Below, piece by piece: positions 1,610 to 42,627 of a stretch of 42,627 nucleotides of DNA (positions are counted from its first letter, which is position 1; each line of letters begins with the position of its first letter). The notes under the pieces were generated by a model. The model saw nothing but the letters and a program-made list of their open reading frames with translations. It was not told where the DNA came from and made no database searches. Location of the stretch: UHGV virus genome UHGV-0123675. The stretch is one strand, 5' to 3'. The stretch is from a virus. Position numbers and translations under genes: made by a program.

Positions 1610-2740
1610 TCAGTCTAAAATTATTTTTTTCCATTCTTTACCTCGATCATCGTGATAGCCAGCAGTTTGGTTTGGTGATTTATGTCCCAGTAATTTTTGG
1701 GTATCGACTCCCTGTGCTTCATAAAGCCTTTCCGCCAAAGACCGCTGTTCGTGAAATGTAGCAGGTGTCCCATTACCCCAATCAATTCTGGCTAAATCTC
1801 GTGCTTTACTGAAATTCATTGTCAATGTATTGGATTTAACTTGTGTGCCGCGTTCAGCCTGTGAAGTCGTACGAAAAAAATGTACAAGGTAAGGGCTGAC
1901 TGCATAGTCACGGCAGCGAGCTACAACATCGCGCAGGCTCCAGTTGATTGCATTCAAACGCAGGGAAAGAGGAATAGCTATTTTGCTGCCGGTTTTTTCC
2001 TGTTCGATATGCAGATGATCATCCCATATATCGCTAAATTTCATTTTGGATATGTCACCAAGACGTTGCCCTGTCACAAGGGCAAGCAGCATTGCGTTCC
2101 CCATATACTGTTGTTTCTTATCTGCAATATCGAAAATCTTCTGCCACTCTTCGAGACTAAGTCGTTGTCTGGTAATCTTGCGCCTGGGCTGTTTAGTAGC
2201 AAGGGCAGGGTTGTGACCAGGCGGCACTTCACCGTAGTGTTGGGCCTCTTTGAATACATCGATCAGCACTGAACGAACAACTTGTGCCATTCTTGGTTGG
2301 CCTGCAGATAGATACTCTTCAAGAATTTGAGCAATATCCCTGACATCAACAGAAGATATCAGCTTCATTCCCGCACGTTCTTTCAAAAGTGCAACTGGCT
2401 TGGCTTTTTGTTTATATGTATTCTCCTTGATATCACCTGAAGCTAATCGTTCCTCCTGAATTTTCCAGTACCGCTCAAGCCAGGTAACTGTAGTAATTGC
2501 CTTACCCTTACTGGTAGCAATTCGATCGCTTATAGCCAGTACCTGTCTTGAACGCTGCTCAGCAAGTCTCGCGTTCGCTTCAGTAGCAATTGCTTTAGCC
2601 TCAGCTTCATCAGTACCTAGACTGTGAAATTTCCCAGTTACAGGGTGCTTGTACCTCCAATACACTTTATTGACCTTACGACTGTATAGTGGATATAGGT
2701 TAGGTATTGATACATTATTTTTACGTGGTCTCGCAGCCAT
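1610..2740 (-). CDS. int: Tyrosine recombinase / phage integrase, lambda Int family
   Basis: Translation resembles lambda Int (N-terminal PNLY...YWRY..TGK arm-binding region; C-terminal HELRSL..LLGH...Y catalytic region); start taken at internal Met (MAARPRK) giving the classic 20-bp overlap with xis; the longer ORF runs to 2806. Confidence 0.9.
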   Translation of the reverse strand: MAARPRKNNVSIPNLYPLYSRKVNKVYWRYKHPVTGKFHSLGTDEAEAKAIATEANARLAEQRSRQVLAISDRIATSKGKAITTVTWLERYWKIQEERLASGDIKENTYKQKAKPVALLKERAGMKLISSVDVRDIAQILEEYLSAGQPRMAQVVRSVLIDVFKEAQHYGEVPPGHNPALATKQPRRKITRQRLSLEEWQKIFDIADKKQQYMGNAMLLALVTGQRLGDISKMKFSDIWDDHLHIEQEKTGSKIAIPLSLRLNAINWSLRDVVARCRDYAVSPYLVHFFRTTSQAERGTQVKSNTLTMNFSKARDLARIDWGNGTPATFHEQRSLAERLYEAQGVDTQKLLGHKSPNQTAGYHDDRGKEWKKIILD

Positions 2741-36998: not shown

Positions 36999-37856
36999 TT
37001 ATTTACCTATAAGAGAGACCTTTAATCTTCTTAATAAAGTAATTACATCTTTCCTTCCGAATAGTTTAAACAGATTAAACCAGCGGTTCTTACCCAGGTA
37101 ATTTAGTTTTATTAATTTAGGGTTGTAATGATAGCACATTATAAAAAAACCCTGATCGTCATCAACTATATTATTTCTGAGTGTTTTTATTTGGCACTGA
37201 CAAACCAGTTTGTAAAACTCTTTCCATTTCTTTTGTGTTGCTACAATTGCCCCACCAATAATATAGGAACGATTGTTAATCATGTGGTCAAAAACCTGAT
37301 GGATAGTTTTGACGGCCAAGCCTTTTTTAACTGTAAAGAAATTTACTTTGTTGCGGTCAAATGGATAGTCCCATCGAGATAACCCTCTGGTTACGTCTGC
37401 ACTGCGACAGTAACCAAAGTCAACCCATGCAACCATATCATCATTCACAAGATTTAACTCTATAGCTCTGTTTACAAAATATGTTTTCAGATTGCAAACC
37501 AGTGCATAGTCTGGGGACCAGTATTCGGGGTTTATCAACTGGCGAGTTTCAAGTTTGCTTATGAACTCGTTATCTTTTTGAATCCGCGCAATTATTTTTT
37601 TGATGTGTTGAAATTTTTTATTAATATCTAAAGCCACTACAACAGTATTTTTCCCATTTCTGATTGCTTCAATTTTTGGTTTAAGTTCACTGGATGTGAA
37701 AATGACCATGTCATTATCCAATTCAGACAGATTTTCAAAGTACTGAATATAGGTATCAGCTGTTCTCTCTAAGTGAGGAGAGAAACCTTTATTACTCGTC
37801 CAGTCTCCTCGTCCTATATCGAAAAATGCTGTAACAATGGTAATAGATGAGTTCAT
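36999..37856 (-). CDS. HtrL/YibB-family-like protein (285 aa; tentative), AT-rich cargo gene
   Basis: N-terminus SITIVTAFFDIGRGDW resembles the conserved start of HtrL/YibB-family proteins; AT-rich, minus strand downstream of tail fibre genes. Confidence 0.5.
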   Translation of the reverse strand: MNSSITIVTAFFDIGRGDWTSNKGFSPHLERTADTYIQYFENLSELDNDMVIFTSSELKPKIEAIRNGKNTVVVALDINKKFQHIKKIIARIQKDNEFISKLETRQLINPEYWSPDYALVCNLKTYFVNRAIELNLVNDDMVAWVDFGYCRSADVTRGLSRWDYPFDRNKVNFFTVKKGLAVKTIHQVFDHMINNRSYIIGGAIVATQKKWKEFYKLVCQCQIKTLRNNIVDDDQGFFIMCYHYNPKLIKLNYLGKNRWFNLFKLFGRKDVITLLRRLKVSLIGK

Positions 37857-38342: not shown

Positions 38343-38585
38343 TTAATCTGAAACCAGCCACATTTCAGCCTCTTCAAACATTTCCTGAACAGTTCGGCTT
38401 ATCTGTTCCTTCTCATGCTTGCTGGCGTCAGTGTTGATCGCCGGCAGTGTCATCATCGGTTTAACCCGGACATCAGCATCGGGGAAGATCCGGTGAACCC
38501 TCTTGGTCAGTTCGCCCAAAATGATATCTTTTGCACCGGGCAGACCATCAAAATTCCTTTTGTCATAAACGAGTTCCACGAACAT
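38343..38585 (-). CDS. dinI: DinI-family DNA-damage-inducible protein
   Basis: 80-aa protein; ELTKRVHRIFPDADVRV ... EQISRTVQEMFEEAEMWLVSD parallels E. coli DinI (ELSRRIQYAFPD ... QRISEILQETWESADDWFVSE). Confidence 0.85.
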   Translation of the reverse strand: MFVELVYDKRNFDGLPGAKDIILGELTKRVHRIFPDADVRVKPMMTLPAINTDASKHEKEQISRTVQEMFEEAEMWLVSD

Positions 38586-38659: not shown

Positions 38660-38902
38660 ATGATGCCACGACGTAGCGATATTGAAATAGCCTGGTATGC
38701 TTCGATACAGCAAGAACCGAATGGCCGGAAGACTGTCACCACACAGCGATTTGTCCAGGAACTGAGCAAGGTTAACTGGAACTGGACGATGAAGCAGGCC
38801 AACGAATGGATCGAGTGGTATGTGACAACATTCCGCGATGTATCAACGCAGGAAGGCGAGAACCGTACTTTTCAGTTGTTCAATCCAAACGGAGGACTGT
38901 AG
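38660..38902 (+). CDS. Hypothetical protein (80 aa) co-operonic with UmuD'-like gene
   Basis: ORF with AGAGGGG RBS; stop 2 nt before the UmuD'-like start. Confidence 0.45.
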   Translation: MMPRRSDIEIAWYASIQQEPNGRKTVTTQRFVQELSKVNWNWTMKQANEWIEWYVTTFRDVSTQEGENRTFQLFNPNGGL

Positions 38903-38904
38903 CC

Positions 38905-39294
38905 ATGGGCTTTCCTTCACCTGCCAGTGATTACGTTGAAAAAAGGATTTCGCTCGATCAGCAGCTTATAAGCCAGCCATCAGCAACTTATTTCATGCGG
39001 GCATCACGTTCACATTTCAGGGAAGGAATACTACAGGGGGCGCTGCTTGTTGTGGATGCGTCACTTACTGCCTGTGATGGCTCATTGCTGATATGTGTAA
39101 TTGACGGGGAATTCAGGATCAAGAGATATCGAAAGCATCCTCAACCCCACCTAATTAATCTGGAGAACGGGAGAAGGGAGGCGCTGCCAGCAGATGATGA
39201 CGGTTACAGTTCTGCACCCGCTATATTCGGGGTGATCACGTACATCATTAATGATGCCAGGAACGCGGAGTTTGATGACTGCCCGGTGATGTGA
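38905..39294 (+). CDS. UmuD'-like protein (S24 peptidase fold, lacks the N-terminal propeptide; HumD-like)
   Basis: GFPSPASDYVEKRISLDQQLISQPSATYF ... DGEF.IK parallels E. coli UmuD residues 25 onward ([29 protein letters not shown]); start ATG 38905 with GGAGGA RBS falls exactly at the UmuD autocleavage site; the longer ORF from 38806 overlaps the upstream gene. Confidence 0.8.
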   Translation: MGFPSPASDYVEKRISLDQQLISQPSATYFMRASRSHFREGILQGALLVVDASLTACDGSLLICVIDGEFRIKRYRKHPQPHLINLENGRREALPADDDGYSSAPAIFGVITYIINDARNAEFDDCPVM

Positions 39295-39384
39295 ATAGCT
39301 GAAACTTTACGGTAAAGCCGATGTTTTGTGTCGGGGTTTTTCCCCGATAATTCCCCATTGCTTCCCCGTTCAGAGAACAGGCAT

Positions 39385-39412
39385 AAAAAACCAGCCGTAA
39401 CAGGCTGGTTCT
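39385..39412. terminator. Bidirectional rho-independent terminator (after UmuD'-like gene; on the minus strand directly 3' of the tRNA fragment)
   Basis: AAAAAA-CCAGCC-gtaaca-GGCTGG-TTCTT. Confidence 0.5.
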
Positions 39413-39423
39413 TAAGGGATTTT

Positions 39424-39470
39424 TGGTCGGCACGAGAGGATTTGAACCTCCGACCCCCGACACCCCATGA
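39424..39470 (-). other. tRNA-Pro-like 3' fragment (anticodon-arm to CCA end only), probable attachment-site relic
   Basis: Minus-strand sequence ...TCATGGGGTGTCGGGGGTCGGAGGTTCAAATCCTCTCGTGCCGACCA has a tRNA-Pro-type T-arm and acceptor 3' strand ending CCA; no complementary 5' acceptor strand or D-arm upstream, so not an intact tRNA. Confidence 0.65.
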
Positions 39471-39560
39471 TGGCAAGCTACCGTCTTAAGAGCTATTCTG
39501 CACCAGAAGCTGACGTTGCTTACATAGTGTTATGCTTGTTTATGGGAGCAAGTCACCGAT

Positions 39561-39938
39561 TTAGGCTTTTATTTTGCGATGAACACCAGCCATGAGGCTA
39601 TGCTTCTCTTCTAAATCTACGTCAGATGTCCATACAGTGTTATTGCGGCTCCTGCGAACAGAGGCAACGATCTTACGCTTAATTTCTTTTGGAGACATGT
39701 TCTTGGCTTGGCCAGCAAGAACATAGTCTCTGGATGCTTTCTCTACTGTTTTCAGTAAATTATCAGTGAGGAGTTGTCCGGCGTTACGACATCTGCGAGT
39801 GTTAAACCGCACAGCGAATCTCAGCACATCCTGATAATCAGAGCGGACAATTTCAGTTTTGAGCATCTGTTGCACACGTTTTTGGGCAGTTGTCGAGTTG
39901 CCCAAGTGTTTAACTGCCGCTAGCTTACTTGGTCTCAT
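39561..39938 (-). CDS. Hypothetical basic protein (125 aa)
   Basis: Minus-strand ORF in AT-rich island; Lys/Arg-rich; no recognised motif. Confidence 0.5.
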   Translation of the reverse strand: MRPSKLAAVKHLGNSTTAQKRVQQMLKTEIVRSDYQDVLRFAVRFNTRRCRNAGQLLTDNLLKTVEKASRDYVLAGQAKNMSPKEIKRKIVASVRRSRNNTVWTSDVDLEEKHSLMAGVHRKIKA

Positions 39939-40004
39939 ATAACCCTCCTAACATTCTTCTCATAAGTATTTTATCATAACTGTTCACAAAATACTCAGTG
40001 CGTT

Positions 40005-40586
40005 CTATCTGATCAGTTTAGTTAACAGCTTAGCCCGGGGATTATTATTCCGCTTTACTCGAGCTTTGTCTGCAGCGTTTAGGAAATAGCCAAACGATTG
40101 ATATCTATTGATAAGTTCCTTATCAGGCCGACTTATATTGACCTGGCTTATACCATATGCATCAGCGAAGCTCTCTGAAATAATCAGGGCAATCGGCATG
40201 ACGAAACCTTTCAGGGGATGGTCATTGGGATTTCCTTCGAGGTAGCGAAGGGTTATGCAGAGCCGATTTTTTGAACGCCTCCCAAGCATCAACCCGCAAA
40301 GAAATTCGCGGCATCGAATACTTACATCAATGCGCTTGGTTTGGTTACTCCTTTCCTGGCTCCAGTTGAAGTCAATAAATTGACGTTTTTCTGGCAGACG
40401 CCAACTACTACTAGCCTCTTCTGAATCTATATAATAAATATGACCCAATTTGATTTCATCAACCGGAAGTTGGCTACTAAAGTTCTCAGTAATGGAAACC
40501 ATAGCATCCGCAATTGCCATGGAATAGATTAACTCATGATTTAGCTCTTCACCGGCAGAAAGGATGCCAGCTTGTACCGACGCCAT
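40005..40586 (-). CDS. Hypothetical protein (193 aa)
   Basis: Minus-strand ORF 66 nt upstream of the 125-aa gene; no recognised motif. Confidence 0.5.
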   Translation of the reverse strand: MASVQAGILSAGEELNHELIYSMAIADAMVSITENFSSQLPVDEIKLGHIYYIDSEEASSSWRLPEKRQFIDFNWSQERSNQTKRIDVSIRCREFLCGLMLGRRSKNRLCITLRYLEGNPNDHPLKGFVMPIALIISESFADAYGISQVNISRPDKELINRYQSFGYFLNAADKARVKRNNNPRAKLLTKLIR

Positions 40587-40823
40587 ATCAACTCCCTTTT
40601 TATTATTGTTACAATAACCTGCAACTTAAAACATTTTATTGATGTATAAAGCAAACACTGATGTCAGTTCCTCGCCCAGTGCTGGCAGTAGTATTTGATT
40701 GTGTGCTGCACGAGAAAACTGTCAGATCATACCTAAACTAATACATATGTATTAACTCTTATTGGATCTGACACTGGTACGGCACAGGGCTAAAACTGAT
40801 CTTACAGGCACATCTATCCAATT

Positions 40824-41918
40824 TCAGTCATTAAGGTACTTAGTATTCCCTTCACAAAATCCACAGCCAACCAGTCCACTCATTTCACTAACTGATGTAG
40901 AGCTTCCACCACAGTAGCCGCAAGTACTGATTGAATCATGAAAAACAAGGCAGTTCGTGCACAGATATCCACCTCCGTACTCACATACCGTCTCATAGCC
41001 GTCACAATCGGAACAACTTGCTGGAAGGCCTGAATAACTAATATCTTCTGGTTTGCCGACCCATTCATCCAGCAAATCGTATCTGGATGATGAGTAATTG
41101 CAGTTGTTGCAATTGAAATTCGTTTCACCGGTAGCGTTCAGATCCTGCCTTACTCCGCAACTAGGGCATGTAACTTCGACATAAGGATCAGATCTGCAGC
41201 CGCAGACTAAGCAATTTGCTTCGTGAAGAGTATTTCCTCTCTCCTCATTGATGGATATATCAACGGCAGCATTTTTACTGCAAGCACGACAGTTTGAGAT
41301 CGTGCATCCCTGTTTTCTGAGATCATCGAGTGTAGGCTGTAAATAACGAAATTTTGCATTAGCATAAAACAACGAACTTTCGAGCATACGATCCTCATCT
41401 GATGCCAACTTTGAGTTTAGAGGTTCTCCAAAAAGATAGAACCACTGATCACGCATAAAACGGTTAAGCGCAAACCAAGCGTCAGCCTGTTCATCAAGGA
41501 TTGTCTTCACCTGAGTGTCGGTAAAGTCGGAATGATAAAAATGAACCACACGGTTGCGGTGGTCTTTAACTTTTTTGAATACAGCGATGGTTTCTTTCGG
41601 TAGGGGATTTTGAAGTACATCACCTAACCGCTGACAGGTTTCATCGTATGTGACCGACTGGAAATCACCGGCAAGGTATTTTGCGCGCTCAATTTTCCTC
41701 CCGGAGCACACCAGACTCCAGTGTTCGTGTACTAGCGGCACTTTCAGCATGATCTCTACCGCGGTCCAGAAACTGACAATCGAAAATTTTGGCTTGGAAG
41801 CCTCTAGTTCTTCGCGTGCCTTATCTAGAAACTCCAGACCGTTGTTGATCAGAGCTTGAACGTCTTTAGATACAAACGATTCGTCATTGTACTGGAAGCT
41901 GTATTTTTTATTTTTCAT
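40824..41918 (-). CDS. Hypothetical protein (364 aa) with HEPN-like RNxxxH motif and Cys-rich (multi-CxxC) C-terminal region
   Basis: N-terminal helical region contains KDHRNRVVHFYH (R-N-x3-H); C-terminal ~150 aa contains at least ten CxxC/CxC pairs suggestive of several zinc ribbons. Confidence 0.55.
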   Translation of the reverse strand: MKNKKYSFQYNDESFVSKDVQALINNGLEFLDKAREELEASKPKFSIVSFWTAVEIMLKVPLVHEHWSLVCSGRKIERAKYLAGDFQSVTYDETCQRLGDVLQNPLPKETIAVFKKVKDHRNRVVHFYHSDFTDTQVKTILDEQADAWFALNRFMRDQWFYLFGEPLNSKLASDEDRMLESSLFYANAKFRYLQPTLDDLRKQGCTISNCRACSKNAAVDISINEERGNTLHEANCLVCGCRSDPYVEVTCPSCGVRQDLNATGETNFNCNNCNYSSSRYDLLDEWVGKPEDISYSGLPASCSDCDGYETVCEYGGGYLCTNCLVFHDSISTCGYCGGSSTSVSEMSGLVGCGFCEGNTKYLND

Positions 41919-42409
41919 GGCTATATAACCTGTTTATTCATCCGGTACCCATTGTAAATGCCCTACTTAAACGGAGCACTAATTTTTAGAAATCTTCCAG
42001 CTGGCTGATTATATCTTGGACTAGCCCCATTTGACTAATACACCTGTGTGCTGCGTCCATCAGTTGAACTCACAGCTCCTAGCGGACATTCGCAACATTA
42101 AATTCTTCACCATTTAGATTGTCTAATAGTGATAACCTTTTGAATAATCAAGAGTGACAATATTAAATTATTGGCGAAAAGATGATGTAACGTATTGATA
42201 AAGCATGATAACACGCATGATTTAAAATCCCTTTATCGTGAAAGGGCTGATAGGTACAGGCACTTGTTTTTGCCCTATATAACGGTTATCAAAATCCAAA
42301 AACACACATTGATAATCAATCGGTTAGGGGAATGCTGCAAACTAGTTGATTTACAATAAAATTATAGAATTATTTTTATTTATCATGTGGTTGTATATGA
42401 AGCATCTAA

Positions 42410-42577
42410 CTACTGCTGCGCCACATGGGTTGGGTCGAAGCGGCTGACCTGATCGTTAAAGGTATGGAAGGCGCGATCAACGCCAAGACCGTAACCTATG
42501 ACTTCGAACGTCTGATGGATGGCGCTAAACTGCTGAAATGTTCAGAGTTTGGTGACGCGATCATCGAAAACATGTAA
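42410..42577 (+). pseudogene. icd: 3' fragment of isocitrate dehydrogenase gene (icd), attachment-site duplicate
   Basis: Translation [54 protein letters not shown]-stop matches the Icd C-terminus; an in-frame TAA lies immediately upstream and the preceding DNA is unrelated AT-rich sequence. Confidence 0.8.
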
Positions 42578-42599
42578 TCCAGATTCTGGGTTGTGTGAG

Positions 42600-42627
42600 A
42601 ACGGGAGCCGAGAGGTTCCCGTTTTTT
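42600..42627 (+). terminator. Rho-independent terminator downstream of the icd 3' end
   Basis: AACGGGA-gccgagaggt-TCCCGTT followed by TTTTT. Confidence 0.6.

Follow-up and report, generated by a model that had tools for sequence, protein, structure and literature searches.

An orphan proL attachment half-site, very probably a relic, at the edge of the cargo region in an icd-integrated enterobacterial prophage

Introduction

Mosaic exchange and relic attachment sites are well-established phenomena in phages, and the locus described here is a new documented example; in the literature that we searched, no description of this orphan proL site came up. Among the described systems, the closest are the phages that integrate at proL, represented by the free phage Flotzy (PP925827) and by the prophages at proL in E. 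coli 100181 and CX21. In these phages, the attachment-site core covers the tRNA from its anticodon loop through CCA, and behind it come a trailer, a CCAGCC hairpin and GGGGAA repeats, with an adjoining UmuD/HumD-DinI cassette. The order in Flotzy is integrase, P arm, core, P' arm, UmuD-like gene, DinI and tail fibre. The second system is the icd module of e14 and phage 21, which has the integrase IntE, a phage-borne icd 3' end and cargo between the attachment site and the integrase; in e14 this cargo consists of ymfD, ymfE and lit. In e14, mcrA adjoins icdC; this comparison concerns the icd site and not the proL relic. The third is the moron, an autonomous unit of gene, promoter and terminator in a prophage.

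In the present study, we analysed a window of 42,627 nucleotides, which is the whole stretch of virus genome UHGV-0123675 presented above, with the interval 39385-39470 as the feature of interest. The window shares with the proL phages the core from anticodon loop to CCA, a similar trailer, the CCAGCC hairpin, the GGGGAA repeats and the adjoining cassette in the same orientation. Unlike them, it has neither a P arm with the conserved distal motifs nor an adjacent proL-type integrase, and carries cargo and an icd attachment site instead. With e14 and phage 21 it shares the IntE-like integrase, the phage-borne icd 3' end and the cargo between attachment site and integrase. We conclude that the feature is very probably the orphan half (core plus P' arm) of a proL attachment site, left as a relic after exchange of the integrase/attachment module.

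Results

The feature and its surroundings on the side of the SOS genes comprise the following parts:
39424-39470, minus strand: probable former attP core, from the anticodon stem/loop to CCA, with 47 nt of identity to the 3' part of proL
39471-39495, minus strand: decayed tRNA continuation toward the 5' end (D-arm region), without a tRNA fold, seen by BLAST and local alignment
39414-39423, minus strand: trailer from CCA to the terminator, its first 8 nt equal to the native proL trailer
39385-39413, minus strand: intrinsic-terminator-like hairpin with T6 (CCAGCC/GGCTGG, extendable to 11 bp)
39340-39368, minus strand: three (C/T)GGGGAA repeats with 11-nt spacing, unique in the window
39329-39384, minus strand: remaining P' arm spacer, common to proL-integrated relatives (96% or 87-89% identity)

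Read on the minus strand from 39470 to 39424, the core is TCATGGGGTGTCGGGGGTCGGAGGTTCAAATCCTCTCGTGCCGACCA, which is identical at 47 of 47 positions to positions 31-77 of E. coli K-12 proL, the gene of tRNA-Pro(GGG). The original prediction of a 47-nt tRNA-Pro 3' part on this strand was correct, and a search for a matching tRNA 3' end returned this full-length identity. Its naming of proK has to be replaced by proL (anticodon GGG); proK and proM were each considered as the source gene, and neither sequence is identical to the fragment. The same 47-nt block is present at attL and attR of proL lysogens and, as in the attP of a phage that uses a tRNA gene, it is the 3' part of the target tRNA from the anticodon stem/loop onward. 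The core is single-copy in the window, since each half of TCATGGGGTGTCGGGGGTCGGAGGTTCAAATCCTCTCGTGCCGACCA occurs once with up to 3 mismatches, and 100 dinucleotide-preserving shuffles gave 0 matches to it with 3 mismatches permitted. The left core half-site reads GCTTGCCA in the window and GCGCACCG in proL, so that 4 of 8 positions differ.

The fragment had been described as lacking the 5' half of the tRNA. This is nearly right, but the absence is not clean: the BLAST alignment to native proL runs 12 nt past the 47-nt core with 4 mismatches, and local alignment follows decayed tRNA homology up to about 39495 (TAGC..GGTAGC..CC). A graded series of homologous flanks was found at loci L017, L029, L050 and L084, all negative in ARAGORN. 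No complete cloverleaf is seen by the tRNA finders in the window. ARAGORN called no tRNA in its whole length, and Rfam gave no tRNA at the gathering threshold and none at E<=10 within 39300-39620, while the positive controls L008 and L085 were called as tRNA-Pro(ggg). A complete tRNA on re-examination of the 5' side was rejected on the basis of these searches and working controls, and 39424-39470 is thus free of an intact tRNA, in agreement with the original prediction. In the window, as in most of the orphan copies, a perfect 3' half stands beside a heavily decayed 5' half.

Downstream of the core, the 8 nt after CCA (AAAATCCC, 39416-39423) are those of the native proL trailer. The hairpin consists on the minus strand of CCAGCC (39408-39403), the loop TGTTAC, GGCTGG (39396-39391) and T6 (39390-39385). 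RNAfold extends it to an 11-bp stem, in which the upstream AAGAA pairs with the T-run, and the G+C-rich 6-bp stem, 11 bp in total, with its T6 has the structure of an intrinsic terminator. The hairpin is also able to form on the plus strand. It was not listed by a simple consensus terminator scan of the window, probably because the stem extends into the T-run. The native terminator of proL in E. coli K-12 is CCAACC-CTTAC-GGTTGG, of which the window hairpin is a diverged homologue; the CCAGCC type also follows the rebuilt proL at attL of lysogens and is found in Flotzy. Judged from sequence, the predicted terminator at 39385-39413 is a variant of the proL terminator that belongs to the phage. 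The clean terminator noted earlier after the fragment is thus upheld by sequence, by RNAfold and by homology to proL.

The triplet of GGGGAA repeats, for which 0 occurrences are expected by chance in the window, lies at the same place in functional attL or attP sites (L008, L009, L085, L033, L093) and is kept in most orphan copies. By analogy with lambda P'1-P'3, the (C/T)GGGGAA repeats are probably the arm-type binding sites of the proL-type integrase. The window thus has a P' arm that is homologous to those of working sites and carries the putative binding sites. Within the P' spacer and directly after humD, there is also a second terminator-like hairpin with a T-run, on the plus strand (39318-39334), which overlaps the palindrome GGGGAAAAACCCC.

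Working proL sites were sought in E. coli genomes with a chimeric query made of the 5' part of proL, the window fragment and its downstream sequence. The fragment, the terminator and about 90 nt beyond matched the DNA 3' of an intact proL, at 96% identity in three E. coli strains and at 87-89% in many others. The match ends on the window at about 39336 in E. coli 100181 (96%) and at about 39329-39333 in the 87-89% matches. In E. coli 100181, the left junction at proL belongs to a prophage with Mu-like baseplate genes, pinE, DinI and UmuDC, and attL consists of an intact proL followed by the window-type CCAGCC terminator and spacer (96% identity). At the right junction, 40 kb off, there are a 398-aa arm-binding integrase, two small cargo genes and the P arm; attR then holds the displaced host proL 3' half with the host CCAACC/GGTTGG terminator, followed by the yejO flank. 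The rebuilding of proL by the phage core and hairpin is visible at these lysogen junctions. Hairpin and spacer of the window are of the attL type and not of the host type found at attR, and therefore the window copy is phage-borne (core and P' arm). A phage-borne, attP-like tRNA 3' end had been proposed for this position, and both the proL lysogen junctions and the attP of Flotzy bear it out; the suggested comparison with relatives at tRNA-Pro led to prophages at an intact proL with the same core, terminator and P' arm. Other integrase types, together with host tRNA variants (GTCAGG in the variable region), occur at the anticodon-loop site of proL in L058 and L070/L079, and at least two integrase families appear to target proL.

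The side of the core where a P arm would be expected is different. The sequence 39471-39580 is unlike the P arms of L010, L018 and Flotzy, and the chimeric attR query found no E. coli lysogen with a P arm matching the window flank. The flank 39471-39560 differs from the P arms that accompany known proL integrases.

The integration module now present in the window is of the icd type:
1610-2740, minus strand: the sole integrase of the window, lambda-type with an arm-binding domain (Pfam; 86% to e14 IntE)
41919-42627, plus strand: the attachment site in current use, attR of the prophage, with an icd-type P arm (about 42165-42410), the icd 3' fragment and a terminator

The integrase, which probably starts with the Met at 2740, has 86% identity to e14 IntE, as against only 25% to the proL-type integrase; a cognate integrase for the proL site was not found in the element, whose only integrase is IntE-like. 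The icd 3' fragment corresponds to the ORF 42425-42577, and the P arm before icd is common to E. coli icd prophages. The IntE-like integrase and the duplicated icd 3' end at the junctions are those of an e14-type icd prophage, and both the terminal icd fragment and the lambda-type integrase had been recognised in the original prediction. The end of an ENA contig matches the window at 100% identity. In CP101082.1 (L011/L012, 2180680-2222694), tandem copies join the window end to the window start across 53 nt, with the icd fragment repeated. The contig identity, the tandem junction and the icd end together show that the window is a prophage integrated at icd, and that its host is an enterobacterium but not E. 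coli; in a single genome-collection scan, the only match was Citrobacter braakii ATCC 51113.

Several further observations concern this module. CP101082.1 holds two copies of the right end of the window 25.6 kb apart, one of them joined to the left end in an attP-like tandem junction, and the copy between the two right ends is without most tail genes. The duplicated icd attachment segment (42578-42627; L011/L012) continues past the icd stop through a terminator hairpin, so that the icd attP, like the proL attP, supplies the terminator for the rebuilt gene. Between attL and the integrase (50-1604), two ORFs of 272 and 244 aa are AT-rich (GC 0.34) and matched nothing in Pfam or PADLOC; their position is that of ymfD, ymfE and lit in e14, and they may form a second cargo slot.

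The relic lies between the following genes:
38343-38585, minus strand: DinI (Pfam), in the SOS cassette adjoining the P' arm
38660-38902, plus strand: 80-aa protein with no Pfam match, in the same cassette
38806-39294, plus strand: S24-peptidase/HumD-like protein (Pfam), in the same cassette
39561-41918, minus strand: variable cargo of three co-oriented ORFs, on the other side of the relic from the SOS cassette; by the ORF list 40824-41918 (364 aa), 40005-40586 (193 aa) and 39561-39938 (125 aa)

The same SOS genes stand beside the site in nearly all related loci and in Flotzy. The 80-aa protein is presumably msgA-like, a label that draws on the annotation 'virulence protein' in phage Chris1. 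Between the tail-fibre assembly gene and dinI, there is an AT-rich gene (GC 0.35) of the HtrL_YibB family (36999-37856, minus strand), at the position of which several relatives have a pin-type invertase.

In the cargo, the 364-aa ORF was identified as HEC-08 (PADLOC, E 4e-163), a HEPN (DUF3644) and zinc-ribbon protein with a reported role in anti-phage defence. The 193- and 125-aa ORFs have no family match, and they accompany HEC-08 in every contig that encodes the 125-aa protein. A promoter-like site (42037-42008, minus strand) precedes the cargo operon, transcription of which would run on through the relic to its terminator; the relic hairpin is the only strong hairpin with a T-run downstream of the cargo on the minus strand. 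Different cargo occupies the same position in L001, L006, L007 and L017, and the cargo beside the relic in relatives includes a GIY-YIG protein, a DUF262 protein, an HNH endonuclease, a porin, SRAP and others. The GC content is 0.43 in the cargo as compared with 0.51 in the phage body. The relic is positioned at the joint between the conserved phage genes and a cargo hotspot. As in morons, the cargo genes have their own promoter-like site, are ended by a predicted terminator and lie at a prophage end; unlike in morons, the terminator was recycled from an attachment site and not brought by the cargo.

The spread of the site was examined by two scans. Scanning IMG/VR with the tRNA 3' end gave 64 loci, among which the proL-type integrase was found only beside one family of P arms, and those loci are attR or a complete attP. 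The P' arm and humD/dinI stand without a proL-type integrase at 20 other loci or more, counting only those with an upstream sequence of at least 1.5 kb; the 80-aa ORF is often present at them as well, and some have an IntE-like integrase and an icd attachment site a few kb upstream. A second scan was anchored on the hairpin, which leaves the tRNA part unbiased, and gave 43 sites: one with an intact tRNA, 31 with a perfect 3' half and about 11 with substitutions or indels in the tRNA part. Of the orphan copy in L006 only about 30 nt are left, and the whole relic segment is missing from a related icd prophage. With about 11 of 43 copies decayed and one relative without the segment, the site is therefore dispensable and decaying, as a relic would be.

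Orphan copies were also found in E. coli prophages at ssrA and icd, and in one beside a tRNA-like gene near yodB. In Gifsy-2 (L092, NC_010393, 44227-44334), a decayed proL fragment, the hairpin and GGGGAA repeats lie unannotated between sseI and the right end, 1.5 kb from the prophage end; Gifsy-2 integrates between pncB and pepN. Gifsy-2 and the E. coli ssrA and icd prophages resemble the window in that the relic stands between the tail-fibre/cargo region and the prophage end while integration takes place elsewhere. They differ from it in the state of the copy, as in Gifsy-2 the hairpin is damaged and an internal stretch is deleted, and the E. coli ssrA and icd copies have a T-to-G change, whereas the window copy is perfect. 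One type of icd prophage, seen in L007 (8031, 9203), L083, L088 and L090, carries a pair of orphan proL fragments, each with a terminator, at a distance of 1172 nt. In L007, the one of these whose annotation was examined, each fragment follows its own cargo gene, one encoding a hypothetical protein and the other an HNH endonuclease, in a cassette-like manner.

Discussion

The original prediction offered two readings, and the first, an ancestor integrated at tRNA-Pro that later acquired an icd integrase/attachment module, agrees with what was found: relatives integrate at proL and the window carries the icd module. In the proL phages, as the lysogen junctions show, integration replaces the 3' half of proL by the phage core, and the phage hairpin terminates the rebuilt gene. 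In the lineage of the window, the integrase and the P arm would have been exchanged for an e14-type icd module with cargo, while the core and the P' arm stayed joined to the SOS cassette. The break would lie at the core, as the last homology common to all these phages. This order of events and the place of the break are what the arrangement of the sequences suggests. Today, the DNA at 39385-39470 is most likely inactive as an attachment site, to judge from its sequence. Its hairpin, a predicted terminator, probably ends the convergent cargo operon of HEC-08 and the two further ORFs and insulates it against humD, and perhaps it also ends the humD transcript.

One finding speaks against a simple relic. 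A perfect 3' half next to a heavily decayed 5' half is unlike purely neutral decay since one origin. The contrast could have arisen if the 5' part had decayed while the site was still in use and the integrase had been lost recently and repeatedly. Alternatively, recombination with working copies could account for it.

The relic explanation has to be weighed against the possibility that the orphan site still serves as a recombination joint, either through a proL-type integrase acting in trans from a co-resident or infecting phage or through homologous recombination in the tRNA/terminator block of about 100 nt. We consider this unlikely. At such a joint, an incoming phage might dock, or cargo and integrase modules might be swapped, and the site would have persisted for promoting exchange, which we likewise doubt. 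Many unrelated flanks do meet the tRNA within a few bases of the anticodon loop, at positions of about 29-33, where crossover would be expected; yet the common junction position is explained equally well if the flanks are remnants of former P arms. The window core and its three P' arm-type repeats are intact, and in L017 and L029 the identity to the tRNA reaches back to position 23, so that a complete attB-like core may be preserved there, but the left core half-site of the window has the four differences from proL given above. The double copies 1172 nt apart in L007, L083, L088 and L090, in L007 each behind a cargo gene, are what accretion would give. No recombination product was observed, however, and about a quarter of the copies are decayed and one relative is without the site. 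In its widest form, with orphan attL-like half-sites in many enterobacterial prophages as shared docking and exchange joints that move defence and virulence cargo or entire integrase modules between co-resident prophages, the proposal is improbable to a similar degree.

The second original reading, that 39.5-42.4 kb was separately acquired and stacked at the prophage end as a mobile element integrated at a tRNA-like site, did not hold up and is in our estimate very improbable. The lower GC content of the cargo and its differences among related prophages would fit such an element. Against it, the segment encodes no integrase or transposase, on the right it borders on the prophage's own icd P arm, and the window holds no second tRNA core, so that a nested element with its own recombinase and direct repeats of the attachment core is not seen. 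Variable cargo in a hotspot is the better description of the segment.

Just as improbable is an origin of the fragment in host DNA, by which a proL lysogen, excising aberrantly, would have carried off the displaced proL 3' half and host terminator. Clear homology does link the hairpin to the native terminator of proL, here that of E. coli; the host copy at attR, though, has CCAACC/GGTTGG and host downstream sequence, whereas the CCAGCC/GGCTGG type with GGGGAA is that of the phage side at attL and of Flotzy, and no host genes follow the fragment. Given the phage-side hairpin type and the GGGGAA repeats, we reject a host-derived fragment of the attR type.

Finally, a functional RNA, such as a tRNA-like 3' tail or tRNA half that is processed from or stabilises the cargo mRNA, would form the 3' UTR of the cargo transcript and could draw on the T-arm hairpin of the predicted fold (z = -2.7), but it is scarcely credible, because no tRNA or other Rfam family reaches threshold, substitutions in the would-be 5' strand of the acceptor stem mostly break pairing across the copies (a reading of the flanks), and many copies have indels.

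Conclusion

As a relic of a proL attachment site, the locus gives a direct view of a temperate phage changing its chromosomal address, with the integration module swapped and half of the old site left behind. The conceptual gain is small unless the site is recombinationally active; if it does act as a joint, both the junctions of unrelated flanks with the tRNA at the anticodon loop and the tandem sites of the L007 type would find an explanation. The proL relic is a landmark in many enterobacterial prophages, whatever their insertion site, and marks where the SOS cassette ends and the defence or virulence cargo starts. Such a landmark helps to draw the boundaries of prophage and cargo, and guards against the miscalling of prophage ends or tRNA pseudogenes.
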